Positions 1-64,000 of a DNA stretch of 64,000 nt are shown here, piece after piece (positions within the stretch are counted from its first letter, which is position 1; each line of letters begins with the position of its first letter). A program made the translations under genes and the position numbers. Source of the stretch: Flaccisagitta enflata (taxonomy: Eukaryota); assembly GCA_965153355.1 (NCBI GenBank), contig OZ231126.1, positions 1,302,001 through 1,366,000 on the forward strand, given 5' to 3'. The notes under the pieces are model-generated. The model did no database searches. It was given only the letters and a program-made list of their open reading frames with translations, and was not told the origin of the DNA.

Positions 1-3000
1 GCAGTATCCGCCAAAAGACCGTCGATCTGGCCTTCCAAAATTTCAACTGGATCAGTTTCAATTCGAACATACAGTAACGTTACATGTGCGCTTCAGTGGG
101 AATGTCCGCCAAGCAGCCGATGCAGCAGCAGCAACAGTTGGAGCAGCAGCAGCAAGGACAGCAGCGCCACCACGGCAGCAGAATGAACAGCAACAGCGGC
201 CCTGACCAGCAACAGCAGCCCAACATCAACAGTGGCAGCAGCAACGTGCTTCAACAACAGCAACAGCATCAGGGATTGTGCATCATCAAACCCCAGCAGC
301 AACGATTCTCCCTACTGCACCGGAAGTGATCTTCGAGAAGCAGATTGGTTCCGCATAGAAGGGAGACTGGTCTTCCCATCAAGAGGAAAAGGTCTTCAAC
401 ACAGCCGGATGCGGGGGTGATGCTACGGACGTGATAAGCTGGAGGTAGAGGCAAGAGGCCGCTGACGCGAAGTTGGCCCAGCAGCTGCAAGATAAAGAAA
501 GAAGAAAAGTCGCTCCAAAGAAGACAACGACTGAATAGCAGCCAAAGGCGCCGAAAGTAGCGCAAGCGCCTAACGACGCCTCGAAGTGTCATCCAGCAGA
601 ATCATCGCTTGCAGCAAGAAGTGGATAGTTTGAAGATGCAGATCCAGAGACTTTCTTGACCGCCAGAAGCGAGCAGAAGACACCTAAAAGAAGAATTAAA
701 TAACAGCCACAGCATTGGTCCGCCAAGATTTTGATGCTCCCAGATTCCATCAAGATGATCGTCAACAACAAGTGAATCAGCAAGAGAGTTAGTGGAGGTA
801 AAACCACCAAAAAGAGATCTCCGGTAAAAGTCGGGGGTCAATATGCCTTCATCCAACAACCCCAGCGTATCATCAAGGTGGAGCATCACTGGGCAGCCCA
901 CAACCGAAGTCCATGTTCAGATGCCCAACAATCCAGCTCTGGACAGGTTTTTGGAAAGAGCGACGTATAATGATCTTACACAAGCAAGGGAGGTCTGCCT
1001 CAAAGCGTTGGAGAGAGCAAGACCTGAGAAGCTTCTGCAGGAGCTTTCATCCACCGACTTTATGATGTGGAAGAGGAAGTTTAAAGATGCTGAGAAGCAT
1101 GAGGGCTTGACGCGAATGGACATCTTATTGGAATTGCCCAAGTGGTTTGCTGGTCCGGCAAAGGAGATCATGGGAACTGCGACGATTGATGCAACTGAAG
1201 CAACAGCAAGAGGAGAAATTGACGACGCCTTTGCAAAAATGGACGTCGTCTTCATGGCGGGGCTGCAACATTGCGGCGCTGTTCAACGAAATCGCCGCGG
1301 AGGCGAAGATCCAGTCGGCCGACCATGCATGGTTCACCCTGTCTGCAAGGCTGCAGCAAAGAAGATTAAGTAGAGACCTGTGAGAGGGCAACAATGCTAT
1401 CGTGACGCAGCTGCTGCAGGAGATCCTCAATAAGAGGGTCCTCTATCTTGCAGATAAATTCTGTAGCAAATATGAAGCAGCCCAAAATGGACAATTATTT
1501 TCATTCGACAACTCAATCAATATGATCGAGACATGGGCGGTGATTCAGCGCAACATGGGGCGCAAGTTGCAAAACAGCATCAGTGGCAGCAGTCGCAACT
1601 ACAGAGAAAGAAGCGCCATCATCATATGAAGATGCTTGACCAATGGTGCTGGGCAAAGACGAAGTCGACGGACCGGCTGCAACGCCTGCAGGGAAATGCA
1701 GATCAGACGTAAAGAATGCTGTCAGCTGTTAGAGTTGAAGGACGCGGTATTCAAAAAGATCGCGTCTCGTCGCTCTTTGCTTCCACCGTCGCGCCAAGAC
1801 ACAACGCCAAAGGATGCGCGAACAGACCGACTTGCCAAAACTGCAAGTAGTGGCACGCAACGATTCTCCACGAACGCACTCTATAAGAAAGAAGAAAAGG
1901 AAGAGAAGAAAGGAGAAAAAAAGCAGGGAAATAAAGTAACGTTGGCTTTTCAAAGTCAGGAGGATGGCAGCAGCAGCACCCAACAGCCTGGCTGACGGCG
2001 GAGGCAGCCAATCTCACGGAGGTGATCTTCAACGCTGCTTTACATGATCATGCGACGGCACTGCCAATGTCCGTCTCTTCATTCGACGACGTTGTCCGTC
2101 CGATTGTTCCAGTGACTATTATAAACAATTCTTCCGGTGCGCAGAGGACGATTTACGCTATGATCGTACTTCCAGGGCGCTGATCGCGGACGTGATTTGC
2201 ATCAATGTCATTCGCAGGCCTTCTGATTCCAACAAAACAGTGCAATGATGGTGATTACTGTGGGAAGTCATGTTGTTGAGGATCAAGCTTTCATCGCATC
2301 ATTCACTATGCAATCGGTCGATGTTATATCAACAGTGTCGTCGACATCAACGACGCATTGGTGGGTGATTTGTTAACGAGTGAACGCGACATTCCTCCCT
2401 TTCTCCGCGACCCATCTGACCAACCTCACATCGGGGGCGTAAAATTTCCAGAAGCTGAAGGCGGTCAGATGATGATCATCGGAGCGGTGCATGCGGATGC
2501 CGCCGTCGCTCAAGAAATCCGCTGAGGTCTTCTTGTGACGGACTTGGCTTCAGACGTCTGCCATTCGGTTGGACTGCATGTGGAAAAACGGGCAAGAGAG
2601 GACGAGATATTGCGTCGATCAACGCCATCGCGACGGATGACCGCGTCCTCAACGATAATATCGATCGCATCCTCGAAAATCGCGCCCTCAACAGCAACAT
2701 TGACCGCATCTTCTACTACGACTTTGCATCATCAGTCGTCTCGCAAGAGGAGATGGGTGATTCCCTGGAAAATGTCAGAGCGTGCAAAACGTTAGAGGAA
2801 AGAACATATTTTTGCCCAATCAGGAAAAAGTACTTTGCTCCCGTCACGTGGAAATTCTATCACGAAACGGCGAGATTTTGGAGAAGAGTAAAATCACGCA
2901 TCAACTGGCGGCGAAGCCGACTCGGCAATCAACGCGCCTCAAGCGTGATCCAGCCTTCAAAGAAAGAGTTTTCCGTGAAATCGAGTAGTTTCACGAGACG

Positions 3001-4410
3001 GGAGTGGCGATTGAGATCGATAACGCCGACGATTACGACGGCATTGAGAAACCGCGCTGGTACTTACCGCTTCATATTGTGTTGAACTGCGCGGAAAACG
3101 CGCGTATGTCACGAAGCGATGCCAGTGCGGCGACCGACGGGATCCTCACTCCACGTGACTTGCCTGGCCGAGGTCCAAATTTGATGAATAGCTAATGGAC
3201 ATCCTCATATGTTGGCAGGAAGATCGCCTTTATGTGTGACATAAAGGCGTTCTTCCACCAGATTCATGTCCATCCTGACGACGCTGATCTGTTAAGATTC
3301 TTTTGGTTCAAAGACCGTACTTTACGAGAAGCCATTTTGAATCTGTTCTTATCACATGTCTTCAGCCAATCCAGCTCATTCGCCACGTCGCCACCTGGGC
3401 CAGAGCATGCTGAAGTAATCCGGCCCAAATATCCCTCCAACGTCTACGATCTTATTCGCTATGGTTTTTACGTTGACGACGAAGTGGGGTGTGAGACTGG
3501 CCGACTAAGCACTGCAACCAGAAGGTGATTCAGTGGCTGCGATGGCTGGCTACGGGATGGATCTTGTGAAGTGGAAAAGTAATGCGCGGCAATTGATGGA
3601 TGGAGATCCAAATGTGCCAATCCCCATTCTTAGATAAAACAAGATGATGCGCCGACGAAGGTGTTGGGCGTCCCATGGCTTCCTCCAGAAGACTTCTTTA
3701 TTTTCATCTGCGATTAAGAATTCAAAACTCTTAGAGCAAAAACACCGCGTCAATTGGTCTCTATGCAAGTTAAACTTTACGATCCATTGGGTTTTGGAGC
3801 CCAAGCGCATACATCGGCAGATGACTACATCTTCAACTCTGTCGCCCAGGAAGTGGGATGGACGTCTTTGGAAGAGAAGCGTTGAGGAATCTTTCTTCCG
3901 CTATACTTCATCTTGGCCTCTTCTACAACAATATCGAATTGAACGCTGGTGGAATGGCGCAAGGCGATAACAGCGACATTATGAAGTCACAATCGAGTTA
4001 TTTTACATGCAGCTCCAAAAGGCGGATAGGACAGGTTGCATATCGACGTCAAGTCAACCGAGATAGAGATGTTCACATTTCATTCATCTTGCCTCCAAAT
4101 CTCACGCCGGCCACATCCTACCTGTCCAAAACGGTCATCACAACAGAAGGCTCACGTGTCGGTGAGATTGTATCCGCAGAAAAAGCAGTGCAGCTCAAAC
4201 GTCTGGCTGAAGGACCATCAACTGACAATCTCGTCGCAGATTTTGGCCTGATTCTGAATCTGCACTGAAGATGATGCATAATCCGGCAAAACCGAGTACT
4301 GTATTCTTCGCCAATCGGCTCTCCAAGATCCATAGTGGGTCTGATTCAACAGTGGCGCCTGGGCTGACTCACAAACAACCCGGCGAACAGCCGCACCGAA
4401 CGGCGATACT
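1..4410 (+). mobile_element. Partial, indel-riddled copy of the Bel/Pao retrotransposon (gag, protease, RT, part of RNase H); inverted relative to ~32312-36696
   Basis: Collinear with the reverse complement of 32312-36696 (shared PEVHVQMPNNPALDRFLERATYNDL, WYLPLHI, CDIKAFFHQI, FYVDD, FFANRLSKIHSGSD), with small indels every few tens of bases; ends at an N gap. Confidence 0.93.
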
Positions 4411-4411
4411 G

Positions 4412-4421
4412 NNNNNNNNNN
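4412..4421. other. Assembly gap (10 N)
   Basis: Run of N; sequence on either side is unrelated. Confidence 1.
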
Positions 4422-4422
4422 A

Positions 4423-4932
4423 TTCAACCAATCAAGGTCCAACCAGAACTTCAACCAACCTCACATGAATAACACCATTGCCTCTGTTGACCAAGAGCCA
4501 ATACAAGCACATCAAGAATATTTCCCAGTGGTAAATGAGCCACCTCACCAACATCAAAATCCTGCTGTCAACCTACAGCACCCAGACGGTCAACAAAATG
4601 GGCCTGGCGGCCAACAAAATGCACCTGGTGGTCAACAAAACATACCTGGTAGTGGAATCCCACCACCGTTATATGGAAATCTTCAGCGCCCTTTATGCGG
4701 CAATTGTCAGCGCATTGGACACAGATGGCAAGATTGCCAATGGGCGGCATTCTGCTCTAGATGTCTTGTGGAAGGACATCAGAACAGGTCTCACTATCAA
4801 AATCATAACTGGCCACAACAGAGACCTGACGCCAGGCAGTGGAACAACATCCAATTCCAATATGGCGGAACCAATCAGGACGACCAACAAGTGCCCATGA
4901 ACCACATCGATGGGCCCAATCATGATCAATGA
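4423..4932 (+). CDS. gag: Gag-like C-terminal region with two zinc knuckles (5' end lost in the gap)
   Basis: CGNCQRIGHRWQDC = CX2CX4HX4C; CSRCLVEGHQNRSH = CX2CX4HX4H; frame open from the gap; Q/N/P/G-rich. Confidence 0.8.
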   Translation, partial: FNQSRSNQNFNQPHMNNTIASVDQEPIQAHQEYFPVVNEPPHQHQNPAVNLQHPDGQQNGPGGQQNAPGGQQNIPGSGIPPPLYGNLQRPLCGNCQRIGHRWQDCQWAAFCSRCLVEGHQNRSHYQNHNWPQQRPDARQWNNIQFQYGGTNQDDQQVPMNHIDGPNHDQ

Positions 4933-7900
4933 TGGGGCCGAGTGGATCCTGAAGAGAACTACTGTAGCTCAGACGTATTCCTCATTAATAAAACAGGTAA
5001 TCTCACTAACCTTTGTAGAATACCAAATACTAACCTTTTTGTCGAAACAAGCCCAGCTGGAAATCCTTTTCAAAGGACAATTAACTTCACACCAACAACT
5101 CATGATGCAACCCCAAATAAATTCTTCTTGTGCAATTCAACAAAGCAAAGAAACAAATTCTCAAGAAAGAAAAACGCCAGGCCATGGTCAAAAACCAAGG
5201 CTTGGGAACGTAAAACTGATAGCAAAAATAGCCCAACCTCCCAATTTGCACAAAGGGGATCAAAGCATGGAAACAAACATGCCAGGCCAAGGTCAAAAAG
5301 CAAGGCTTGGCAACCCAAAAATAACAGCAAAAATGACCCAACCTCTCAATATGTATGGAGACAATCAAAGCATGCTTCAAACCAAACTTCAAAGAACATG
5401 ATCCCTAGGGACCAAAACGCATGGAAATCAAATCTGGCCCTTGATCACAATGGGTGGCAAATAAGCACTTCAAATAGATATGGTCTCCTTTCTAACCATG
5501 GTGAAGATGAACGAGGGACGAACCAAAATCACTCCTCAGTGTTTGATGACAAAGAAATTGAAGAACGCCTTCACCGTTTAAGGAGTCAAAATATCTTGAA
5601 CGTTGAAGATTCATTTAATGGTGAGAATGAAGTCCCATCCACGCAAAGATTGGAACCTGTTTACTTTAAGAAGAAATCAAGAAAACATGACAAGTCAAGA
5701 AGACCTTTCAAAAATCAGAAGAAAGTAAAGGTAGATCCTTTACCTGCCTCGGAATCATCACAATGGATGGAAAATGAACAAAAGTATTACCCACCAATGG
5801 TTGGATCATCAGGTAAGAGAATCGTTAAAATAGGTAAGTCTAAACTCCAACCCGCACGACATAACTTTTCCTCTAGACAGACAGATGGACACCCTGATAC
5901 CCATCACTCTCAAGATAATTCACCTTTAAACTGCGCAGCAAAACATGACCTTGCCTCTGGATTAAAGGGCAAAAACACCACAATTAACGAAATTGAGGTG
6001 ACTCCCAGCGGTTTAACTTGTCGAGACGTCAAACCTAGGAAGAGACGCAAAGTTAAGAAGGATGGACCAAACATAAATACAACTCAAAATGGCCCAGAAG
6101 TCAGGATCCCAAACCCATGTGAGACAAAATCTCCTTCCAACACCCATGACATCGGTGTCAATACACCTAAACATTTTCTTGCACCATGGGACACAGCCTC
6201 TAGACGAGGGGTTGAACATCCTGATGTCCACGGTACTAACTCTTCAAATAATTGTGCATGTTGGGATCATGCAACTAGACGGAGGGGCGAGCATTCTGAA
6301 ATGGTCAACACAGATGAGAGCCTCACTTCAAATAACTCTACAAGTCAAAACGAAAGACCTTCCAATACCTATGACATTGGTGTGAATATACCCGAACCTT
6401 TTCTTGCACCATGGGACCTTGCCTCCAGACAGACGGGCGGACATCCTAATATCCATGGTGCTAACTCATCAAACAATTGTGCATGTTGGGATCATGCATC
6501 TAGACGGAGGGGCGAGCATCCTGAAATGGTCAACAAGGATGAGAGCCTAACTTCAAATAGCTCTACGAGTCAAAACAAAAGTCCTTCCAATACCCAGGAC
6601 ATTCGTGTAAATACACCTGAACATTTTCATGCACCATGGGATCTTGCCTCTATACGGAGGGGCAAACATCCTGGTACCCATGGTACTAACCTTTCAAACA
6701 ATTATGCATGTTGGGATCATGCATTTAGACGGAGGGGCGAGCATCCTGAAATGGTCAACACGGATGTAAACCTTACTTCAAATAGTTCTACGCGTCAAAA
6801 CGAAAGACCTTCCAACTCCCATGACATTGGTGTGAACACATCTGAAAACCTTCCTCCACCAGTGGACTTTACATCTAGACGGGGGGGCGTAACACCTGAG
6901 GTCCATATCAATAAGATAAACGCCGAGGGACCTACCCCTCTGTTTCAAGAAACTGCACAAAGGAGTGAAGATCAAAATATTTATGGTGATTCTGCAATTT
7001 CTAAACAAGCAGGCAGGAATGCCCGCAATGGAAACAATATGGTAGCAAATGGTAAACAACATTCAAAAGCTGGGAAAAAGATGTCGGGTAAGTATGTAAA
7101 ACACACTGATCCCACCTTCTCTATCCATACAGAAAAGAAATTGGAATCTATCAGTGGACTATGCAAAGAGAATGTCAGCAGATCACCCTTGCTGGTGTTC
7201 CCCTCATCACTCAAACTTAATGCTGAAAGAAAGTTCACTTTTGCTCTCTCAACATTCACAGTTACATTTACACATCACGCCTGGGGAGCATCAATTCCCC
7301 TCGTTCTGCTCATCTGGGTTGTCATCCTAATGTCACTCAGAGGAGAATTTTGGAAATTTATTGATTACTTCAATCCCGTCAAGCACATGGGAATGCATCA
7401 AGTTGGCACAATAAACGTCTTGGACTCCTCTACTGGAGCTAAGCCAAATTGGTTCTATGAGGTCCAAAAACAACCTCAAAATGTGAACCTCAGCCTGCGC
7501 AACATGCTGGAAACTGATTATTGGCCCCTGCAACATGTAAATAATCCATACATTAAGCAGCAGCCACATCCCCCCAGGCGGGATATCAAATACGGCAAGA
7601 AATATCGTGTGGCTGGAATTCTAAACGGAACCTTTGTGGAACTCCAGCTTGACTGTGGGGCATTTGTCTCTGCTATAAGCCTCCAAAAAGCCAAAGAACT
7701 TGGATTAACAATTGTTGATGGTCCAAGCAAGACGGCAGGAGCAGCTAATGGCAGCGTTGAGTTTAAAAAGCAAACAACAACGTGTTTGGATATAGGAGCA
7801 CTCTGCTTGGATGTGACGTTCATGGTCATGGAGCATGACTCCTGGAGGCCTGATATGATTCTCTTGGGTGCCAGTCTACTTGAAACAGTCAAAGCTAAAC

Positions 7901-8361
7901 TAGACTTTGACAAAAACTACATGATTCTTTATGGCCGGTACCCCATTCGTATGTTCACATCCTCTGGAGATCTTAGGCGCTACGTCGACTGCGTCAAAGT
8001 AAACTACATCTCCAACAAGAGAACTCCAGTATTCGCTGATAGATTGGCTATCTTAAAGCCAAACGAATCAAAGTCAGTGAAAATAAAACTCGACCCCAAA
8101 GATCGGCTGTCCCTGCAAAACACAAACCTGTACTTCTGTGCCAATATTCAAACTAAGGGATGCGAAGCGAGGGATTTGTTCATTGATAAAAAATTCCCTT
8201 GGCATCAAAGTGATGTTGAAATTACCATCACAAATACCACAAACCTGCATAAAATTGTAAGGGAAAACGACATAGTTGGCTCCTTCAAGCCCGTGATCTT
8301 CAAAAAATGCACTACTGGCTTGGCGGGAATCAACAGCCACAGCAAAAGCAATGACAACTAA
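4933..8361 (+). CDS. Retroelement polyprotein: basic low-complexity region, 75-aa repeats, hydrophobic segment, retropepsin-type aspartic protease, dUTPase-like C-terminal domain; no RT/RNase H/integrase
   Basis: Same frame as the upstream gag (single TGA at 4930-4932). Protease motifs VAGILNGTFVELQLDCGAFVSAIS...DMILLGASLL...KLDF. C-terminal LKPNESKSVKI...VEITITNTT...IVRENDIVG resembles the dUTPase-like domain after protease in Gypsy-type elements. Confidence 0.75.
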   Translation, partial: WGRVDPEENYCSSDVFLINKTGNLTNLCRIPNTNLFVETSPAGNPFQRTINFTPTTHDATPNKFFLCNSTKQRNKFSRKKNARPWSKTKAWERKTDSKNSPTSQFAQRGSKHGNKHARPRSKSKAWQPKNNSKNDPTSQYVWRQSKHASNQTSKNMIPRDQNAWKSNLALDHNGWQISTSNRYGLLSNHGEDERGTNQNHSSVFDDKEIEERLHRLRSQNILNVEDSFNGENEVPSTQRLEPVYFKKKSRKHDKSRRPFKNQKKVKVDPLPASESSQWMENEQKYYPPMVGSSGKRIVKIGKSKLQPARHNFSSRQTDGHPDTHHSQDNSPLNCAAKHDLASGLKGKNTTINEIEVTPSGLTCRDVKPRKRRKVKKDGPNINTTQNGPEVRIPNPCETKSPSNTHDIGVNTPKHFLAPWDTASRRGVEHPDVHGTNSSNNCACWDHATRRRGEHSEMVNTDESLTSNNSTSQNERPSNTYDIGVNIPEPFLAPWDLASRQTGGHPNIHGANSSNNCACWDHASRRRGEHPEMVNKDESLTSNSSTSQNKSPSNTQDIRVNTPEHFHAPWDLASIRRGKHPGTHGTNLSNNYACWDHAFRRRGEHPEMVNTDVNLTSNSSTRQNERPSNSHDIGVNTSENLPPPVDFTSRRGGVTPEVHINKINAEGPTPLFQETAQRSEDQNIYGDSAISKQAGRNARNGNNMVANGKQHSKAGKKMSGKYVKHTDPTFSIHTEKKLESISGLCKENVSRSPLLVFPSSLKLNAERKFTFALSTFTVTFTHHAWGASIPLVLLIWVVILMSLRGEFWKFIDYFNPVKHMGMHQVGTINVLDSSTGAKPNWFYEVQKQPQNVNLSLRNMLETDYWPLQHVNNPYIKQQPHPPRRDIKYGKKYRVAGILNGTFVELQLDCGAFVSAISLQKAKELGLTIVDGPSKTAGAANGSVEFKKQTTTCLDIGALCLDVTFMVMEHDSWRPDMILLGASLLETVKAKLDFDKNYMILYGRYPIRMFTSSGDLRRYVDCVKVNYISNKRTPVFADRLAILKPNESKSVKIKLDPKDRLSLQNTNLYFCANIQTKGCEARDLFIDKKFPWHQSDVEITITNTTNLHKIVRENDIVGSFKPVIFKKCTTGLAGINSHSKSNDN
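6133..6900 (+). repeat. 225-bp in-frame tandem repeat, ~3.4 copies (75 aa)
   Basis: Units start CCTTCCAA at 6133, 6358, 6583, 6808; peptide PSNTHDIGVNTP...APWD...NNCACWDHA.RRRGEH. Confidence 0.92.
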
Positions 8362-15912: not shown

Positions 15913-16366
15913 AGTTACTCAGATGAGAGAATCGTCTTGAAAATGGGCATTCGACGCGCATCCAGGTTTTAGCGTGAGCTCCGGCCTTCTTTTTCCAAAA
16001 CTCCCCTTTGTCTCTTGGCTCCAAATTTGGCGTTTTGAGACGGAGGGGCGCGTCTGGCCCTGAGCCCACTCAACCCCGTTCTGCGCGCGCCCGAATCCCC
16101 CCTTTTCGATACGAGTCTCTCCTCTTTTCTTCTTCTTCTACATTTTACCGGCTCAGAGCCTTTATAAGCGATGATGATTTGCTTTCTTTACGCATTCATG
16201 CCCCCCGATTCTCTGTACACGATCTTCTGGAGATTTTGCGTCATCATTTCATGAATAAACCGGACTTCAGGCCTATCTTGGTCTCCTTTCTTTTCATTTG
16301 AGTTACTCTTCTTTGAGGCTAGGATCAAATCCGTCGGACATCACGACCTCAAAAGACAGCGTAACC
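15913..16366 (+). mobile_element. Candidate LTR-like terminus of the gag-pro element
   Basis: AGTTAC...GTAAC short inverted termini, TATA-like TTTATAA (~16161) then AATAAA (~16254), abutting the insertion boundary; no polypurine tract and no partner LTR visible. Confidence 0.3.
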
Positions 16367-17156
16367 CGCTCTCTCTTTCCATGTCATGTGAAGAGATCGG
16401 CAAGGATTTGTTTTCATTTGGCCATCGCAATTTCGATTTTCTTCTGAAAACTTTTCTTGTCAATTTTGTTCTTAAGCCTTGTTTTCATCCAATTCAAGTA
16501 GCTAGTTGCGGGAGAACCTCTCGTCCATGTGTCTGTGTTTGTCCCTCTCGGGAAGCCATCGGATATAGCAGGCTTTCCCTGCAAAGGCGGTTGCGGCTAA
16601 AGTGATAGGCTGACGGCACACAGGCTACTCAAATTTCCGACAAATGCTGTCATTTTACAGAATGTTCGATGAAGACGACATTTACCATTTGAGGACCTAT
16701 CCATGTTTGAATATCTTATGTTTCTTTTTCCCAAGCAAATATTCTTCTTTTCTTTTTCATTAGTGAATTAAATATAATTCGGGTTATTACGAGGCTGTAA
16801 TCCCTGTTTTTCTTTATTTGATAGAAAAGTATTACGGTACTGCATTATGCAAATTAGATTTTATAAGCTTATCGCGTACGAGTGTGTGGGGTTAGGAGAA
16901 GGTGATGGACCATAGGAGGCCATTCGGACACTTTTGGCAGAGGCGGCGACGCAAAAAACCGGAAATCGACCGATGTGACAGTTAGCCTGGTGGACGGATG
17001 CATGCGTACGAACCAATGGGCTGTAAGTGGCTTTTAGTATAGAGTCGCGTAGCAGCGGCTGAAAATGCCGATAAGCATCGTTTTCCTTTGTTTTAGAGCC
17101 GCCACGACAAATCTAACAGACAGCAAAGCATCTCCGTTTTCGTAGTCGAGGGTTTT

Positions 17157-17352
17157 TTGTTGCGGACATGCATCTCTACAAGAGGCTTTGTCCGTCCATC
17201 CGTCCGTCCATCGGTCATTGTTATCAAGTTGAAAACTGGGAAAACAAGAGTTTTAGATACTTTCTGTGTATGTTTGAATGTGGGGGCGGGTTGGAGTGTG
17301 GATACCCCTGCCCACCCATCCGCAGCGATATTGTGACCCCGCATCACTTGTT
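17157..17352 (+). mobile_element. Short DINE-1/Helentron-associated-like element (copy at ~59167-59360)
   Basis: T-rich flanks, (GTCC)n tract, CCCCTGCCCACCC block and CTTGTT end, as at 41438, 42107 and 53405. Confidence 0.5.
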
Positions 17353-17949
17353 GGAGCGTCAATCCACTTTCTCGAAATTCGAAAACAAAAACATTTCCCC
17401 TTCAAAACTGATTGAAAAAAAAAAAGACTTTAAATTGAAGTTTTTTTTCAATTGTTTCTCTATCCCGACACACTAGAAGAGTGGCCAAGCTAGTTGCTGT
17501 CCTGGCATCAGCAAATAATGCTGAAAAGACCTTAATTCTATCATTATTCTTACTGATTGAATTTGATAAAACGTTCTTCAAAGTTCGTAATCTTGAAATC
17601 TTCATTTTAACTCGGACTGAAATGCCTTTAAATGGATTTAAAGAAAATGTTTTTTACAGAAAATAGGGCTCTAAGCCAAGTTCTACCATATATACCCAAT
17701 AAGAAAGGGTAAAATTCATCTAGATATTGAAGCAGATTCCAACTGTTAAAAGCCGAGCGGTTACAGAGCAAGTGAGCGGAGCGAGCGAACGGAGCGAGCG
17801 GAGTGAGCGAGTGAACGGCGCGAGCGAACGGAGCGAGTGAACGGAGCGAGCGACCAAGTTTCGCGTATTGAAAAGCTCTCATCTGTTAACACTAGCGCAC
17901 CATAATTCCGTTGAAATTCAGGGGAATTTAAACTTGAATTTTATGAAAA

Positions 17950-22512
<4,563 letters not shown>

Positions 22513-23564: not shown

Positions 23565-25438
23565 ATGTCTGTCACACTTTTCCTATTTTCCTTTCACAAC
23601 CCAAAATTCTCCGATGTCTGTCACACAACCCAAGATTCTCCTATGTCTGTCACACAACCCATGATTCTCCGATGTCTGTCACACAACCCAGAGTTCACCA
23701 AATGTCTGTCACACCACCCAGTTTTTTCCGAATGTTCGTCACACAACCCAAAATTCTCCGATGTCTGTCACACAACCCAAGATACTCCGATGTCTGTCAC
23801 ACAACCCAAGATACTCCAATGTCTGTCACAAAACCTAAGATTCTCGAATGTCTGTCACACAACCCAAAATTCTCCGATGTCTGTCACACCACCCAGTTTT
23901 CTCCGAATATCCATCACACCACCCAGTATTCTCCGAATGTCCGTCACACCACCAATTTTTCTCCCATGTCTGTCATGCTAGCCAGATTTCTCCTATGTCT
24001 GTCACACAACCCAAAATCCTCCAATGTCTGTCACACAACTTAAGATTTTCGTATGTCTGTCACAAAACCTAAGATTCTCCAATGTCTGTCACACAACCCA
24101 AAATTCTCCAATGTCTGTCACACAACCCAAGATTCTCCGATGTCTGTCACAAAACATAAAATTCTCCAATGTCTGTCACACAACCCAAGATTCTCCAATG
24201 TCTGTCCCACAACCCATGATTCTCAGTTTTCTCCGATGTCTGTCACGCTAGCCAGATTTCTCCTATGTCTGTCACACAACCCATAATTTTCCAATGACTG
24301 TCACACAACCCAAGATTCTCCTATGTCTGTCAAAAAACCTAAGATTCCCCAATGTCTGTCACACAACCCAAGATTCTCCAATGTCTGTCACACAACCCAA
24401 GATTCTTCAATGTCTGTCACACAACCCAAAATTCTCCGATGTCTGTCACATAACCCAAAATTCTCCAATGTCTGCCACACAACCCAAAATTCTCCGATGT
24501 CTGTCATACAACCCCAGATTCTCCGATGTCTTTCACACAACCCAAGATTCTCCTATGTCTGTCACACAATGCAAAATTCTCTGATGTCTGTCACACAGCC
24601 CAAGATTCTCCGATGTCTGTCACATAACCCAAAATTCTCCAATGTCTGTCACACAACGCAAAATTTTTAGATGTCTGCTACACAGCCTAAGATTCTCCGA
24701 TGTCTGTCACACAACACAAAATTCTCCGATGTTTGTCACACAGCCCGCAATTTTCCGATGTCTGTCACATAACCCAAAATTCTCCGATGTCTGTCACACA
24801 ACCAAAAATTTTCGGATGTCTGTCACACAGCCCAAGATTCTCCAATGTCTGTCGCACAACCCAAGATTCGCCTATGTCTGTCACACAACCCAAAATTCTT
24901 GGATATCTGTCACACAACCCCAGATTCTCCGATGTCTGTCACACATCCCAAGATTCTCCAATGTCTGTCACACAACCCCAAATTCTCCAATGTTTGTCAC
25001 ACAACCCCAGATTCTCCGATGTCTGTCACACAACCCAAAATTCTCCGATATCTGTCACGCTACCCCAGATTCTTCAATGTCTGTCGCACAACCCAAGATT
25101 TGCCGATGTCTGTCACACAACCCAAAATTCTCGGATATCTGTCACACAACCTCAGATTCTCCGATGTCTGTCACACAACCCAAGATTCTTTAATGCCTGT
25201 CACACAACCCCAAATTCTCCAATGTTTGTCACACAACCCCAGATTCTCCGATGTCTGTCACACAACCCAAGAATCTCCAATGTTTGTCATACAACTCAAA
25301 ATTCTATGACACATACCAAAATTCTCTGATGTCTGTCACACAACCCCAAATTTTCCAATGTCTGTCACACAGCCCAAGATTCTCCGATGTCTGTCACACA
25401 ACCCAAAATTCTCTAATGTCTGTCACACAACCCCAGAC
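23565..25438 (+). repeat. 29-bp minisatellite, roughly 60-65 copies, consensus TGTCTGTCACACAACCCAARATTCTCCRA
   Basis: Head-to-tail units, no unique spacers. Confidence 0.95.
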
Positions 25439-41437: not shown

Positions 41438-41653
41438 TTTTTAGTCGCGTGCTACGCGACTCTACACCCCGCTTTGTCGGTCCGTCGGTCGGTCGGTCCG
41501 TCGGTTGGTGGGTCGGTCGGTCCCTTTTTTACTTTTTCAGCATTTTTGAGCTTTTTGGGCCTACTTCTCCTGCCCAAATGTTCTGGTGATCTTCTCCAGC
41601 ATTGCTCCTGCCCACCCGCACGCGACTAGGGTAGCCGTGTATCCGGCCTTGTT
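41438..41653 (+). mobile_element. DINE-1/Helentron-associated-like short element (relatives at ~42107-42257, ~53405-53620)
   Basis: 5' TAGTCGCGTG with adjacent and subterminal inverted copies (CACGCGACTA), (GTCG/GTCC)n tract, 3' hairpin GCCG-TGTATC-CGGC, T-rich flanks. Confidence 0.6.
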
Positions 41654-46792: not shown

Positions 46793-50222
<3,430 letters not shown>

Positions 50223-50601
50223 CAAGTGCAGAGAAAAGAGCCAATGGAGTTGTTGCAATCTGCTTCTGAACTGCAAGGATTGTCTGCACATTCATCCACG
50301 TCCGAACAATTGAATCCATTCCCTGTAAATCCTCCTTTGCATTCACATTCAAAACTACCAACTGTATTGTTGCATGTAGCATTTGGGTGACAGGTGTGCG
50401 ATTTTATTTCACATTCGTTGATGTCTGCAAAAGTGAGAACAGGCACTGATTGAAATGTAGGTACATTGATGAAAAATGACTAAAATGACAAAAAAAGCAA
50501 ATTGTTATGGACGGACGGACAAACCAATGGACAGAACGAGTCTTAGAGTAGCATGCACACAATAAAAAAAAAAGAATTCATGAACGCAGAAAGAATTGTA
50601 C

Positions 50602-50724: not shown

Positions 50725-50930
50725 CTGCAAAAGATGAGAACAGGCATTGATTGAAATGTAGGTCCATTGCGCAGCAGGTGTCTTTATAGGTTAGCATACA
50801 TGGGTGTGAGAGGGTGAGAAGGGCAGCGGACCCAAACCTATGCTAAAGCTCATGAGGAGTTATGGAAAATCATTTGGCTGAGATTTTGGCTGTGAGAATG
50901 AGACTTTGGCCTTAAGGGTGTGATTACAAT

Positions 50931-52925
50931 TTGCATGTTACAATTTGCATACCAAATGTTCAATTTGAACATGGAAAGAAAGACTTAATTCTTGTTACTG
51001 TCTATCGACAGCCAGGAACTGATAACCTAGACAGATTCCTTGAATCACTTCAGGGATGGCTTAACAAATATGACAAAAGAACCAATGAAATCCTTATTAC
51101 GGGTGATATGAACCTTGATCTTCTTAGATATCAAAGTCATGCACCAACCTCGGATTATATGGACATTATGATGTCTCATTCTCTGCTGCCATTGATCACC
51201 AGACCGACACGAATAAAACACACCAGTGCTAGCCTAATTGATCACTTTTTTTTCAAATCTACAGTGAAAAGATCTGGCATTTTAGCAACTGAAATAGCGG
51301 GAAATCATGGTTTTACTGATCATTATCCCATTTTTTGTGTCATTGGGATTAGCAATGTTAAGAGAAATGCTTCGAGGACCTTACCTTCACTAAAAAATAC
51401 TTTACTTGTAAGTGACATGAGAAAAGACGAGAAGGACTAAGAAGTGAAGATTGGGACTCATTTTTTTCGGAAAATGATCCAAACACTGCTTACCAATTTT
51501 TTCAGGACAAATATTGTTCTCTCTACCATGATTCTCTTACAATAAAATCCTTTGAACTAAAAGGACAAAACTGCCCATGGGAACCGTGGATGACACTTGA
51601 CATCCTTCAAAAAATACGACGAAGGGACAGACTTGCTAAGTTAAGAGGAAGACGAGAGGACTACAAAAGAATTAGGAATGACATAGTAAGTGACTGTCGC
51701 AAAGCTGAAAGGGACTACTACAAAAAGAAAATTTCAGACAACTGGAACAACATAAAAGAGCAATGGAATGTTTTGAGGAAAATCATGGGCAAGCATAATG
51801 ACAAATCAAACCTACCATCTGCCTTCAAACATAACAACAACTGGATGACTGACAAACAAGAAATATCTTACTGCATTAACAAATATTACTCAAGCGTTGG
51901 ACTAGATACAAACAGAAGTGTAGGAAATTCTACAAAGGATCCCAAGTTTTATTTACATAAAAACAGGGAAAGAGTAAGTGACCAGTTGATGACAGGTCGT
52001 TTTACTGAACAAGATATTCTTAATGCATGTAGACTGCTCCGCCCTAAGTCTAGCTGTGATGCTTACGGACTGTCACAGAAGATTTTATTGCAGGACATGG
52101 ATATTCTTGCACCTATGTTTGTTCATTTGATTAATTGCTCGCTATCTGCTGGTATTTGCCCGGATATGAGCAAAATTGCAAGGGTTATTCCTGTCTATAA
52201 AAACAAGGGTGAAAATTATTTGTTCTCTAATTACCGACCCATATCCATGCTACCAGTCTTCTCAAAGATCATAGAAAAATTAGTATAAAACAAGATTTTT
52301 GATTTCTTGGTGCGCTTTGAAATTCTCTTCAAATCCCAGTATGGGTTTAGAAGGGGACATAGTACAACCCATGCAACATTAGATTTTTTAAAAACAGTTG
52401 AAGCCGCGCTTAAGCAAGGGGAGCTTGCTGTTGGAGTATTTATAGATCTGAGTAAGGCATTCGACACTCTAGATCATGAAATACTACTGTCTAAACTTTA
52501 CCACTATGGTATAAGAGGTAAATGGTTGTCATGGATCAAATCATACCTGACAAACAGACAGCAATTTGTGGATGTCGACGGTGTAAACAGCTCAATGTCA
52601 CCAATTACAGTTGGAGTGCCCCAAGGAAGTATTTTGGGGCCACTATTGTTTCTTATATATATAAATGACCTCCCTGCTGCCCTTGACAAACTCATCCCAG
52701 TAATGTTTGCTGATGACACGAATCTTGTGCTTAGGGGCAAAAATCTACCTGAGGTAGTAGCCACACTTAATCATGAACTGGAAAACCTAAATGATTACTT
52801 TAAAGCTAACAAATTGAAGCTTAATGCCGGGAAAACTAAACTTGTCTGTTTTAGAAAAAAAATTTTCCCTTTGCTCAAGAAGATCTTGATGTGGTATTGG
52901 ATGATACTAAAATAGAATGTGAATT
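50931..52925 (+). mobile_element. Decayed CR1/L2-group LINE ORF2 fragment (endonuclease C-half and RT)
   Basis: TVYRQP, GDMN, PTR, SLIDH, TDHYPI (endonuclease); YRPISMLPVFSKIIEK, QYGFR, DLSKAFD, GVPQGSILGP, FADD (RT); frameshift ~51380, in-frame TAA 52286-52288, truncated at both ends. Confidence 0.93.
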
Positions 52926-60141: not shown

Positions 60142-60845
60142 GAGAGAGAGAGAGAGATCGAAATGCCGGCTTAGAGAAAGAGACAAGAAAATAAAGAGAG
60201 AAAGAATGACAAGGGTAGAGAAAGCAGAAAAGAGGACAGATAGAAAAATGCACAGAAAAAAAGTCTGAGAACGAGTGAAAAGCAGAAAGAAATAATTTGA
60301 AAGACAGAAGAAAAAATGTGGAAAGAAGCCATCGATATTTCGTGCTTAAATGTATTTGAGTTACGGACATGTTTGTTGATTATGAATGATTGTTAATAGT
60401 TTTGTGAGATGTTTTTTGCACCTTTGCTTTCAGCGTTTTACTCAATAACAAATCTGTAATCTTACCCATTATCTTACTGGCCTGGCTGACTAACCGACCG
60501 ACCGACCTATACGATCTTACTGGGTAAAAACGTATGTTTCCCGAAAATTTTCGATCCAGAAATTAACATGTCAACAAAAAAAATGCTGTTGTTAACCCAT
60601 AAGAAACCTTAATCAAACATATTTTTTACTTTCTCCAATTTTCGTTTGTAAACGATGAAATGCAAAGGCAGCCAATCAAACAAATGAAATACGTTTGATG
60701 AAGCCATCTTGATAAACAGTTAAATACACTCAATGTTGACCGATTTCCGTAATTCGCGGATTCGGTACAGCGATGTACGCCAATGTCGATGAGTCTACTG
60801 AATATTTATTGTAAGAACTTTATTGTGTTTCTTCTTTCCTCACAG

Positions 60846-60993
60846 TTTTATTTCTCTTGTTTGGGTTTGCTTTCATCGTTGGATTGACCAATTTGCTTTG
60901 GTATTACGCCGGCAAAGTCATTTACATGCCCAAGGTCTATCCTTACAACACAACAGAATTTGAGAAGAAAGCATCAGCTCCATATTATCAGAA
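60846..60993 (+). CDS. TRPC-like cation channel exon (S5 and extracellular loop)
   Basis: TTCCTCACAG acceptor, GTAAGT donor; LFLLFGFAFIVGLTNLLWYY resembles TRPC S5 (F..GLNQL.WYY); ends in phase 2. Confidence 0.8.
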
Positions 60994-62076
60994 GTAAGTC
61001 TATCCTTACAACACAACAGAATTTGAAAAAAAAAGCCTCGGCTCCATACTTTCAGAAGTAAGTCTATCCTTACAATAAGACAGGGTTTCAGAAAAGAAAC
61101 ACAGGAAGGTATGGCATAGTACTATCAGTGGTAATTCTATCCTCAAATCACCAACATGTTTGCTAAAAAAGGCTTGCCAATCTGCTGCCAGAAGCATACA
61201 ACTACAATACAGTTTAAAAAAAAAAAGATATGTCAAGGTGCACATGAAGTGGCAGTTTCTACAGTCAAATCATATTCTGGAAAAATATGTCAATGATTAA
61301 TTTACAATTTTTTTTAAAAGAAATGGTATTATAACTATATTTTGTTGATTTATTTGCATTTGGAATCATTTATGTGTACAAAATCAGTTGAATATTTAAA
61401 AAAAAAAATTTAAAAATTAACCTCCATTGCTTGATTTGTCTTAGGTGAAATTCTTAATCTGTCTCTGAATACAAAATTTTGCATTTCTGAAAATATGGCT
61501 CTATTCTAAAGATATGTAAGCAAAAAACCATTTTCTTAGAAATGCAAATTTTTTTTATTCAGAGACAGATTAAGAATTTCACGCAAAATGACAACCCAAA
61601 TTTGTTGCTCGTTTGCACCGCGACATATGGCACCCTACATTTCCTACTTTCAGAAGTAAATATTATGTAAAATTTAGCTTGATTGCAAGAATTCCCAACA
61701 TGCTATGGTTTTAAACTTTCATCATTGGCAATGACATTGCCGTGTTCCATGCTCAAACTTGCTCTCAAAGAGAACCTTACGGCTCACCTTCAGCGCCAAG
61801 TTATTGATGCCTCAAGTTTTTTTTCTTCTGATTTTCTAATTTGAAAGATATCATTACCAATGATACTGAGGCAACTTACGTAAGGTGGGGCGACTTCCAA
61901 AGACGTGCTCCATGATCATGAATCCACGAAAATGTCATTGTGAAGTGCGACGGTTTTGGCATAGGAACCGTTTGTTCAAAGTATATAAAATCCGAGCATA
62001 GTAGTACTATTTTGGGTCCTCCATATCCTCTCTCTCCGCCCTCTCCACCCTCTCCACCCCCCTCCCTCCACCGCAG

Positions 62077-62344
62077 CATCATCCGTACATTTGAAACTTT
62101 ATTTTGGCCGTTATTCGGCGTGGGAACTAAAGGCAGTGGGGGTGGTCCCCGCCCGATGCATACACCCCCTGAATGGATCGAGGAGAACAACCCCTGGCTA
62201 GGGGGTTTGTTCCATCAGGGGGACTCGGTCAAATGGATCGCCCGATGGGCCGAAATTATGAGCGGATTTTATTACTTGATTATGATTATCATTTTGGTTA
62301 ATATGCTCATTGCCATGATGAGTAACTCGTTTAATAGCGTTCAG
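62077..62344 (+). CDS. TRPC-like channel pore helix and S6 exon (variant A)
   Basis: CCGCAG acceptor in phase 2; IIRTFETLFWPLFG...IIILVNMLIAMMSNSFNSVQ|GT contains the TRPC LFW and LIAMMSNS motifs. Confidence 0.9.
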
Positions 62345-63446
62345 GTAAAAGGCAAATATGTCTATGACTCGATATTAACACTCTCAGCATGCAAGTTGTG
62401 TCATCCCAGCATCGTCCCTCCCAAGAGCGCGGTCAGTTTTTGGCATCTGTGATTTTGGACACAAAAACAACTCTTATTTAGTAATTCGTCATCAGTGTTT
62501 TTTCAGGACTTCATGACCGAGTATCTCACAGAAGGAGTGTTTTGCAGTAAAGCTCTTTTTTTACAAATAACAGTTGTATTCAATAAACAGATAAGAAAAC
62601 TCTTTATAAAAAAAAAAAAAAAAAAAATCAAATCAATGTTGATTTCATGTAACTTTTATTTTGACACATCCCCAAACACAACTTTCTTCAATTCACAAGC
62701 ACGCGTTGAATAAACTATGCACTGCACTCACAGCTTGATCATATATGTAATCTTTATGTTTGATTGCTTGTTAGTAAAACAGACAGAAATACAAAAAATA
62801 TTTCTGGATGAAACAAAACAGTACAAAACGATACAAGAACAGTTAAAACTAAGGATGTGGAGGCGGCTGACCGCTCTCCATTTGGAGGATAGGAAAGCTA
62901 CTAGTATTTTCATTGTAAAATGGAAGCAAAAGCGTATGCGTTGGAAGCGGCATAAAAATCAACCGCTTCCACATCCCTGAACCTAAAACGCCCATTTTGA
63001 TATTACAAAATCAACAAAAAAATGCCCATATTGATGCCGCTTCCACTGCTTATGCCTCCACTTCCACTTCCACTTCTACTTCTACCGCAGTCACTTCCAC
63101 TTCCACTGCCATATCTGCTTCCATTTTTGCTTCTACCTCTGCTTTCGCTTGCGAATCTATTTCCACCTTTGTTGTCACCTCCACCTTCGCTCATGCTTCC
63201 ACTTTATTTCTGCCTCCACTCCCGCTTCCACTTTCTCTTTCAATCCCAATTCCACTTTTGCTTTTACCTCCGCTCCCCCTTCCAAATCTGTATTTGCCTG
63301 CGCTCCCGCTTCCAATTTCCGCTTCCATTTCCACTTTCACTTCATTTTGCAGCTTGAATATGAGTCAATCCCAGTGACCCAACCACCAGATATGAAAGTT
63401 GTAAATCGCTTCCACATCCTTAATTCCTTATAACCTCGATCCGCAG

Positions 63447-63653
63447 CATCTTGAAGACGTTCGAGGTGCTGTTTTGGTCGCTGTTTGGGATGCTGCAGAC
63501 GTCGGAGCGGGAGTTGCGGCAACCACCGCAGCAATTTGACGAGAATGATCCGTGGCACGAAGGTGTTATGGGAGATAACAAACTCGGAGTCTGGATGATA
63601 TCAGGATCATTAGAAATCATTCTAGGTGCGTTTTGTGCTACATTCTTTATACT
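63447..63653 (+). CDS. Second TRPC-like pore/S6 exon (variant B), cut off in S6 by a repeat
   Basis: CCGCAG|CATC acceptor, same phase as 62077; ILKTFEVLFWSLFGM...DENDPW...LEIILGAFCATFFIL aligns with variant A. Confidence 0.78.

Positions 63654-64000
<347 letters not shown>

Follow-up and report, generated by a model that had tools for sequence, protein, structure and literature searches.

Tandem pore exons in a TRPC-like channel gene of Flaccisagitta enflata as candidates for mutually exclusive splicing

The accessible part of one report describes the mutually exclusive exons 15a and 15b of NALCN, which swap a residue of the selectivity filter (EEEE versus EKEE) in lophotrochozoans and non-vertebrate deuterostomes (PMC4436565). 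In TRPM3, according to the accessible part of a second report, pore-loop variants arise from two alternative donors at the end of exon 24, by which 12–13 residues are put in or left out and the pharmacology is altered (PMC9290681). Here we analyse a 64,000-nucleotide stretch of DNA from Flaccisagitta enflata (assembly GCA_965153355.1, contig OZ231126.1, positions 1,302,001 to 1,366,000 of the forward strand; hereafter the window), in which an exon for transmembrane segment S5 of a TRP-type channel is followed by two homologous pore exons, A and B. A first-pass annotation of the window had proposed that A and B are spliced in a mutually exclusive manner and that one gene thus encodes two different pores. 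We tentatively favour a form of this proposal, to which we give somewhat less than an even chance, in which B remains in use as an alternative pore exon: it would end at position 63625, pair with a separate S6 exon and take the place of A. The more solid result of the analysis is that other invertebrate TRPC genes have a conserved, complete pore/S6 exon pair that shows every structural hallmark of mutual exclusion.

Exons A and B of a putative TRPC-like gene

Three TRP-like coding blocks, the S5 exon, exon A and exon B, were found on the forward strand, and no others in the 64-kb window (Table 1). Exon A matched the Pfam family Ion_trans (E 9e-6); among structures in the PDB, it matched TRPC3 best (E 0.002), followed by TRPC4/5/6 and TRP-gamma, with NOMPC at E 0.07. 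In the ESM Atlas, it matched generic Ion_trans clusters only. The S5 exon gave a weak match to S5 of TRP-gamma in the PDB, and open reading frames (ORFs) from 13 of the related metagenome loci described below matched 60794–60919, with a best E value of 2.6e-5. The features of TRPC-like channels that we found are S5, the pore helix (LFW-x-x-FG) and an S6 with the (L/V)NMLIAM motif. A HMMER scan of exon A against 1.84 billion representatives returned just 18 matches, which indicates that the gene is a divergent TRPC-like channel, and a word-index search returned no longer protein that contains exon A. Judged by its sequence, the gene is a divergent TRPC-like cation channel gene, represented in the window by its S5 exon and its pore/S6 exon.

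Exon A codes for a pore helix (FETLFWPLFG), for a long loop in which ENNPW occurs and for the whole of S6 (LVNMLIAMM); a 50-nt pyrimidine tract precedes its acceptor. Unspliced ORFs of the A type occur in related organisms (P0001, 81% identical; P0002, 86%). In the second haplotype of DNA run X1, we observed six differences within 82 nt of exon A, all six of them synonymous and at third positions. By this pattern, exon A clearly appears to be functional and under purifying selection.

Exons A and B lie on the same strand, 1,102 nt apart, and share the acceptor CCGCAG/CATC (the slash marks the splice site) and the start phase, which fits the S5 donor at 60993. Alignment of their products by BLASTP gave 24/73 identical residues (33%) with 5 gaps (E 3e-11). 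The homology, common acceptor and fitting phase that the first-pass annotation had read from the sequence are therefore upheld, and chance similarity was rejected on the E value. Outside the coding similarity, the DNA of A and B has only 10 nt in common, CCGCAGCATC, around the acceptor, which argues that the duplication is old, as had been supposed from the strong divergence of the two exons. The loops of A and B are each about 20 residues longer than those of relatives and both carry EN-x-PW, and A and B are each other's closest relatives. Because their loop exceeds by this length that of the TRPC and NOMPC relatives with tandem pairs, the A/B duplication appears to have been independent of theirs.

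The reading frame constrains how the two exons could be combined. Joins of S5 to A and of S5 to B are both open, whereas the join S5+A+B meets a stop 31 codons into B; as the first-pass annotation had noted, A ends in phase 0 and A+B is out of frame. Exon A has a length of 1 mod 3, and skipping it shifts the frame; skipping both A and B does so too, provided that the next exon starts in phase 0, which the end of A demands. Two hallmarks of mutually exclusive exons are thus present, namely adjacent homologous exons on the same strand and a frame that is broken when both or neither are included. Mutually exclusive pore splicing at A/B is plausible on this evidence from gene structure, and unproven. 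The interval 60994–63653 contains 14 inverted repeats of at least 14 nt, mostly transposon ends. One candidate for docking/selector RNA pairing, 62343–62356 with 63256–63269, covers the donor of A; it is 14 nt long and 86% complementary, without a shuffle control, and we treat it as unsupported. In RNA run X9, none of 12.2 million reads (~6% of one poly-A run) fell on 60700–63797, exon A included, and this count tests neither expression nor splicing.

The outer pore and filter loop of such a channel set its cation selectivity, block and pharmacology. If B is used, one gene would give rise to two channels in which the sensor and gating machinery are the same and the outer pore, with its filter loop, is not.

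The end of exon B and its evolution

In exon B, the pore helix reads FEVLFWSLFG, the loop contains ENDPW, and S6 is encoded only from its start to EIIL-G. The first-pass annotation had left two ends open for it, the donor AG/GTGCGT at 63625 and an S6 interrupted by a repeat at 63654, and both of these features exist. Among the donor-like GT positions of 63447–63700, this donor scores best; it agrees with the consensus at 7/9 positions, as do the donors of A and the S5 exon, and leaves phase 1. The repeat was matched by blastn within the window (63654–63770 to 47400–47519 at 84% and to 49114–49232 at 82%), and the word depth in X1 jumps from ~100 to 831,608 in the bin 63612–63715, with many different loose ends before 63653/63654. 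The stretch between the two, 63626–63653, is either the start of an intron or a remnant of the original S6 of B. Overall, the evidence leans towards the donor as the end of B and away from an S6 that continues behind the repeat.

Because the donor of B leaves phase 1, B cannot join the exon that A joins. Together with the missing S6, this means that B either needs a separate downstream S6 exon (2 mod 3) or has had its S6 destroyed, and the two best readings of the locus divide at this point. In the one that we favour, B would be an old tandem duplicate of A within one TRPC-like gene, and a coding exon of 63447–63625 that ends at the TAG/GTGCGT donor and does not continue into the repeat. It would then be joined to a short S6 exon of its own, located past position 64,000. 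Splicing would follow one of two routes, S5>A>next exon or S5>B>(S6 exon)>next exon, never with both A and B in one transcript, and would yield two channels with a shared sensor and gate scaffold and with different outer pore and filter loops. In this scheme, we infer the splicing of B, the use of the donor at 63625, the downstream S6 exon and the difference in permeation between the two pores. According to its main rival, B is a pseudo-exon, a former full pore/S6 alternative whose S6 was destroyed recently by a transposon or rearrangement at ~63630–63654, and only A makes a channel. We consider such a loss a real possibility, if a doubtful one.

Several observations speak against a pseudo-exon. 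In a second individual (X2), B differs at 63459, 63564 and 63585, and all three differences are synonymous; a random single-base change in B has a 21% chance of being synonymous, and the probability of three in three is ~0.01. Exon B has no stop or frameshift in 63447–63625, and its acceptor, pyrimidine tract and 7/9 donor are intact. Its 59 open codons have kept the pore-helix motif and the lineage-specific EN-x-PW motif despite 33% identity to A. A copy that had been dead since the duplication would not keep these motifs, and B appears from them to have been under selection for most of its history.

Two further copies of the B type, P0019 and P0020, bear on the same question. P0019 is an ORF of 97 residues on a 504-nt ENA contig, which aligns to the window only at 63433–63630. 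It is identical to exon B at 56/59 residues, and both of its flanks are unalignable. Its three replacements (D>V, H>G and D>P) fall in loop codons and together require five base changes or more. With repeated hits in three loop codons and the rest of the exon unchanged, the pattern is one of long divergence under purifying selection, not of neutral decay. The similarity of P0019 to the window ends 5 nt past the GT of the donor at 63625. A frameshift would be one way to explain that P0019 and B part after G-A; we rejected it, as no match was seen by eye in the other two frames. P0020 (98%) is identical to the window through AFCATF, has one replacement, which lies in the S6-like tail at 63626–63653, and then enters a different repeat family that is also present at 41453–41518; the tail is absent from P0019. 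P0020 is probably the other allele, because a contig from X2 likewise diverges from the window, continuing for 40 nt unlike it after 63650. Within 25 nt after B, the three known copies carry three different sequences, as expected of an intron. The three synonymous differences, the conserved block of P0019 and the position of the best donor together favour a real exon of 63447–63625.

Other observations weigh against a live exon B. The differences in X2 are as dense in B (3 in 179 nt) as in the upstream intron (6 in 261 nt), and the synonymous-only signal has n=3. The word-index search returned only two B-type proteins, P0019 and P0020, which were compared as proteins, and a metagenome scan with B-type sequences gave 170 pattern matches, of which 0 were confirmed. 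A degenerate copy of a transposon end (CGCTTCCACATCC; see the MITE-like element in Table 1) lies at 63408–63420, 26 nt before the acceptor of B, and part of the upstream mismatch to P0019 could therefore be a transposon difference and not divergence. Nine codons after 63625 resemble the start of S6 (G-A-F-C-A-T-F-F-I-L, compared with G-A-Y-H-V-A-A-I-V-V-L in relatives) and run straight into the high-copy repeat at 63654, an arrangement that seems to fit a transposon-cut exon better than an intron.

The NMLIAMM half of S6 was not found behind exon B within the window; the S6 half is absent from the window copy, P0019 and P0020 alike, and P0020 runs into its own repeat in place of S6. Loss of this essential part is decisive for a pseudo-exon only if no separate S6 exon exists, and the extra S6 exon that B would need is hypothetical. 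The ends of the two exons also disagree, with A in phase 0 after 268 nt and the best donor of B in phase 1 after 179 nt, and no phase-0 end of B with an S6 lies within the window. The equal end phase, or length modulo 3, that is a hallmark of mutually exclusive exons is thus lacking in A and B; it would hold only for B plus a separate S6 exon of 2 mod 3.

Pore exon pairs in other genes and the remaining readings of exon B

A metagenome scan with A-type sequences matched 593 stretches, of which 215 were confirmed and 80 loci kept. These are distant relatives (29–36% identity), together with short matches to S6 only (42–59%), and the scan returned no orthologue. In 24 of the 80 loci, we found two S6 motifs on one strand. 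These 24 are not independent, as 22 are close relatives (95–98% identical) and the other two form a second lineage. A script delimited both exons in 20 of the 24, with lengths of 196 nt (199 in one) and 190 nt, each 1 mod 3, with cag/ acceptors, /gtaa donors and the same start phase as in the window. The same pair of splice sites was seen by eye in L054 and L078, whereas copy 1 was not delimited in L020 and L079. Across the 22 pairs with both exons delimited, the intron between the copies measures 322–521 nt. In L001, the pair lies at 3563–3758 and 4105–4294; L002–L031, L054 and L078 carry such a pair too.

Both copies of these pairs have been kept as separate versions. Between the lineages, copy 1 best matches copy 1 (68%) and copy 2 best matches copy 2 (65%), whereas the two copies within one locus are identical at 26/65 and 28/65 residues. 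The rates of non-synonymous and synonymous change (dN/dS) between L001 and L007 were 0.020/0.958 for copy 1 and 0.014/0.116 for copy 2, and between L054 and L078 they were 0.135/1.074 and 0.076/0.683, giving ratios of ~0.02–0.13 for both copies. The exons that flank the pairs carry LGPLQISLG, EWKFAR and LPPPFNL, which identifies the pair-bearing gene as a classical TRPC. A conserved and complete pore/S6 pair in other invertebrate TRPC genes makes a strong structural case for mutually exclusive splicing there.

Tandem pore exons were also apparent outside the metagenome loci. Among the 16 non-orthologous HMMER matches of exon A, 11 had two or more tandem pore/S6 (or S6) copies in one unspliced ORF, a share that is biased upward, since two copies add up in score. 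One protein of 526 residues, P0005, has at least seven tandem repeats of an S6-like unit (LLNMLIAMMSRSFEIIQV), one every 65 residues; in the organism of origin, an S6 exon has apparently multiplied into a satellite. In insects, NOMPC isoforms from one contig carry alternative pore/S6 versions (P0128 versus P0139/P0140, P0077 versus P0121, and P0066/P0067 versus P0072). Both versions occur in tandem in three NOMPC gene models (P0042, P0046 and P0048), probably through mis-annotation of mutually exclusive exons. As far as gene structure can tell, pore/S6 exon pairs with the hallmarks of mutual exclusion are a recurrent design in TRPC and TRPN genes.

The same relatives provide a further point in favour of a pseudo-exon. 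In none of the 80 related loci was a pore-helix ORF found apart from S6; the 104 pore exons of these loci, like A itself, all hold pore and S6 together. An exon B with a split S6 would on this comparison be an oddity of derived origin. The channel gene is itself visible only in part. The exon expected to follow S6 with the TRP box (EWKFAR) falls past position 64,000. Ankyrin repeats, S1–S4 and the S4–S5 linker (LGPLQISLG) were not found in the remaining 60 kb of the window, in which we looked for upstream exons with NOMPC proteins, a hidden Markov model (HMM) of the NOMPC transmembrane domain and the TRPC exons of the metagenome loci. Exon A was the sole match of 40 NOMPC proteins to the window by tblastn, and again the sole match of the HMM among all ORFs of the window; the matches of the ORFs from the 80 loci were confined to S5, A and B. 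A weak match at 16357–16419 was dismissed as an upstream TRP exon, as it belongs to a 5-kb inverted segmental duplication (16369–21249 on the forward strand and 60142–55821 on the reverse strand, 87–95% identical). One arm of this duplication ends 700 nt before the S5 exon, and given its proximity the integrity of the whole gene is unproven. The upstream TRP exons may lie outside the window or be too diverged, and the gene has either very long introns or an upstream rearrangement.

The claim that one gene encodes two pores is sustained in part. What supports it is an old tandem duplicate in the same gene, continuing constraint on B and the same design elsewhere; what it lacks is the S6 half of B and an end phase that agrees with that of A. 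A more specific version of the reading that we favour, in which transposon-driven intron gain inside S6 split the pore unit of B, would explain the mid-helix AG/GT with repeats behind it and would likewise make this one TRPC-like gene with two pores by mutually exclusive splicing. We consider this version unlikely. If it is true, then together with the TRPC pairs it would make pore swapping by exon choice a general feature of invertebrate TRPC and TRPN genes. The window locus is a less clean case than those pairs, either a derived split version of the TRPC pair design or a recently broken one.

Another possibility is that B does not belong to this gene and is either a fragment of a separate paralogous TRP gene that was copied here, with P0019 as the functional copy, or the first visible exon of another transcription unit. 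P0019 is indeed a B-type exon with other sequence around it, the region abounds in transposons and segmental duplications, and the structure of B, with its end at 63625, differs from that of A. However, no S5-like or other TRP-like ORF was found in the intron between A and B (62345–63446), nor anything there resembling S1–S4. One would have to ascribe to chance that B lies on the same strand and in the next intron and has the acceptor hexamer and phase of A, and the long loop with EN-x-PW ties A and B most closely to each other. Moreover, the X1 depth of B is that of an ordinary single-copy sequence, without a second variant at ≥95%. We therefore regard a stray paralogue as quite improbable.

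Use of B as a regulatory 'poison' or dominant-negative exon, spliced from 63625 to the phase-0 exon to give a frameshifted product without S6 or a target of nonsense-mediated decay, would accommodate a phase-1 donor that is incompatible with the exon that A joins and the lack of a visible S6, but is the least probable reading by our estimate, as the synonymous-only variation and the conserved pore-helix residues are signs that the pore peptide is under selection as part of a working channel, and we know of no role for a bare protein of S5 plus pore helix.

Other features of the window and comparison with known systems

Table 1. Coordinates of the S5, A and B exons and of the repeats around them (positions in the window; a slash marks a splice site)
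Feature	Position	Strand	Description
S5 exon	60846..60993	+	148 nt; acceptor cacag/, donor GAA/GTAAGT, 2 bases of codon left over
64-bp tandem duplication of S5-exon 3' end and donor	60935..61075	+	2.2 copies; Tandem Repeats Finder (TRF) period 64, 91% matches
MITE-like (miniature inverted-repeat transposable element) high-copy element	61428..61635		In S5–A intron; 32-nt terminal inverted repeats; depth up to 201,082
Exon A	62077..62344	+	268 nt; acceptor ccgcag/CATC, donor CAG/GTAAAA; first base completes codon, ends phase 0
A–B intron	62345..63446	+	1102 nt; high-copy element ~62884-62987, low-complexity CTTCCA-rich DNA
Exon B, best delimited	63447..63625	+	179 nt; acceptor ccgcag/CATC, donor TAG/GTGCGT leaving phase 1
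S6-like tail	63626..63653	+	28 nt in frame, AFCATFFI(L)
Very high-copy repeat	63654..64000	+	Begins TACCAATAAAGGCGG, then (GT)64 and (TC)38; runs past window end

The tandem duplication at the S5 exon covers the last 58 nt of the exon plus the GTAAGT donor. The second S5-type donor that it creates, at 61057, sits behind an in-frame stop (the ORF ends at 60997) and looks harmless for that reason. The MITE-like element in the S5–A intron is polymorphic for presence or absence, and an allele without 61202–61624 is present; contigs from X1 and X3 join 61201 to 61625 with 26–27 other letters between them.

Repeats are also abundant in the rest of the window. The 5-kb inverted segmental duplication holds an acidic, Q/E-rich ORF of 450–480 residues at 19156–20592 (forward) and 57814–56450 (reverse), and a second inverted repeat pair, 4.4 kb long and 88% identical, joins 1–4388 with 36696–32313. 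An ORF of 1,142 residues at 4345–8358 is preceded by one of 195 residues that is broken by a 10-N gap at 4412–4421; by its length and appearance only, the longer ORF is possibly a retroelement. A long, diverged tandem array at 23595–25437 is open in several frames (PKILRCLSHNPRFSDVCHTTQ). Its self-alignment offsets step by ~29–30 bp, the smallest being 87 bp, and the unit is probably ~29 bp. By eye, the cysteine-rich repeats in an ORF at 49859–50479 on the reverse strand resemble those of EGF type (CHPNATCNNTVGSFECEC); this ORF adjoins reverse-transcriptase-like ORFs at 50916–52915 on the forward strand. A search of the window against Rfam gave no match.

In the full-text literature, we found no description of pore exon swapping in TRPC or TRPN; subscription content and supplements, such as tables of mutually exclusive exons in Drosophila, lay outside this search and may hold nompC. 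The closest systems to the window locus are the metagenome TRPC pairs described above. Like A and B, they are TRPC-like, involve the same exon (from the pore helix to S6) after an intron of the same phase, and consist of two diverged copies on the same strand. They differ in that both copies are complete and 1 mod 3, whereas B in the window lacks the S6 half and has another donor phase. Mutually exclusive use of these pairs is deduced from their structure.

Insect NOMPC, a TRPN channel, resembles the window locus in that one TRP gene has two homologous versions of the pore loop and S6, and the unspliced ORFs P0011 and P0014 show the exons in tandem. It is precisely in this segment that isoforms of one nompC gene are unlike each other. 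It belongs to another subfamily, which A matches in the PDB at E 0.07 as given above, and its versions differ mostly in the loop, with S6 nearly identical. The NOMPC isoforms are RefSeq database models.

The comparison with TRPM3, which the first-pass annotation had offered as a precedent, extends only part of the way. As in the proposal for the window, alternative splicing of the pore loop in a TRP channel is real and changes its properties, but what the accessible part of the report describes is a choice of donors in one exon of a different subfamily, not the swapping of homologous duplicated exons (PMC9290681). NALCN is closer in mechanism, since duplicated, mutually exclusive exons there exchange a pore residue, with experimental support; it differs in being a four-domain channel, not a TRP tetramer, in which the pore loop of one domain is swapped (PMC4436565). 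The kind of mechanism proposed here is already known from NALCN and from the NOMPC isoforms, and the other TRPC genes found in this analysis share it; the window locus is an atypical case of it.

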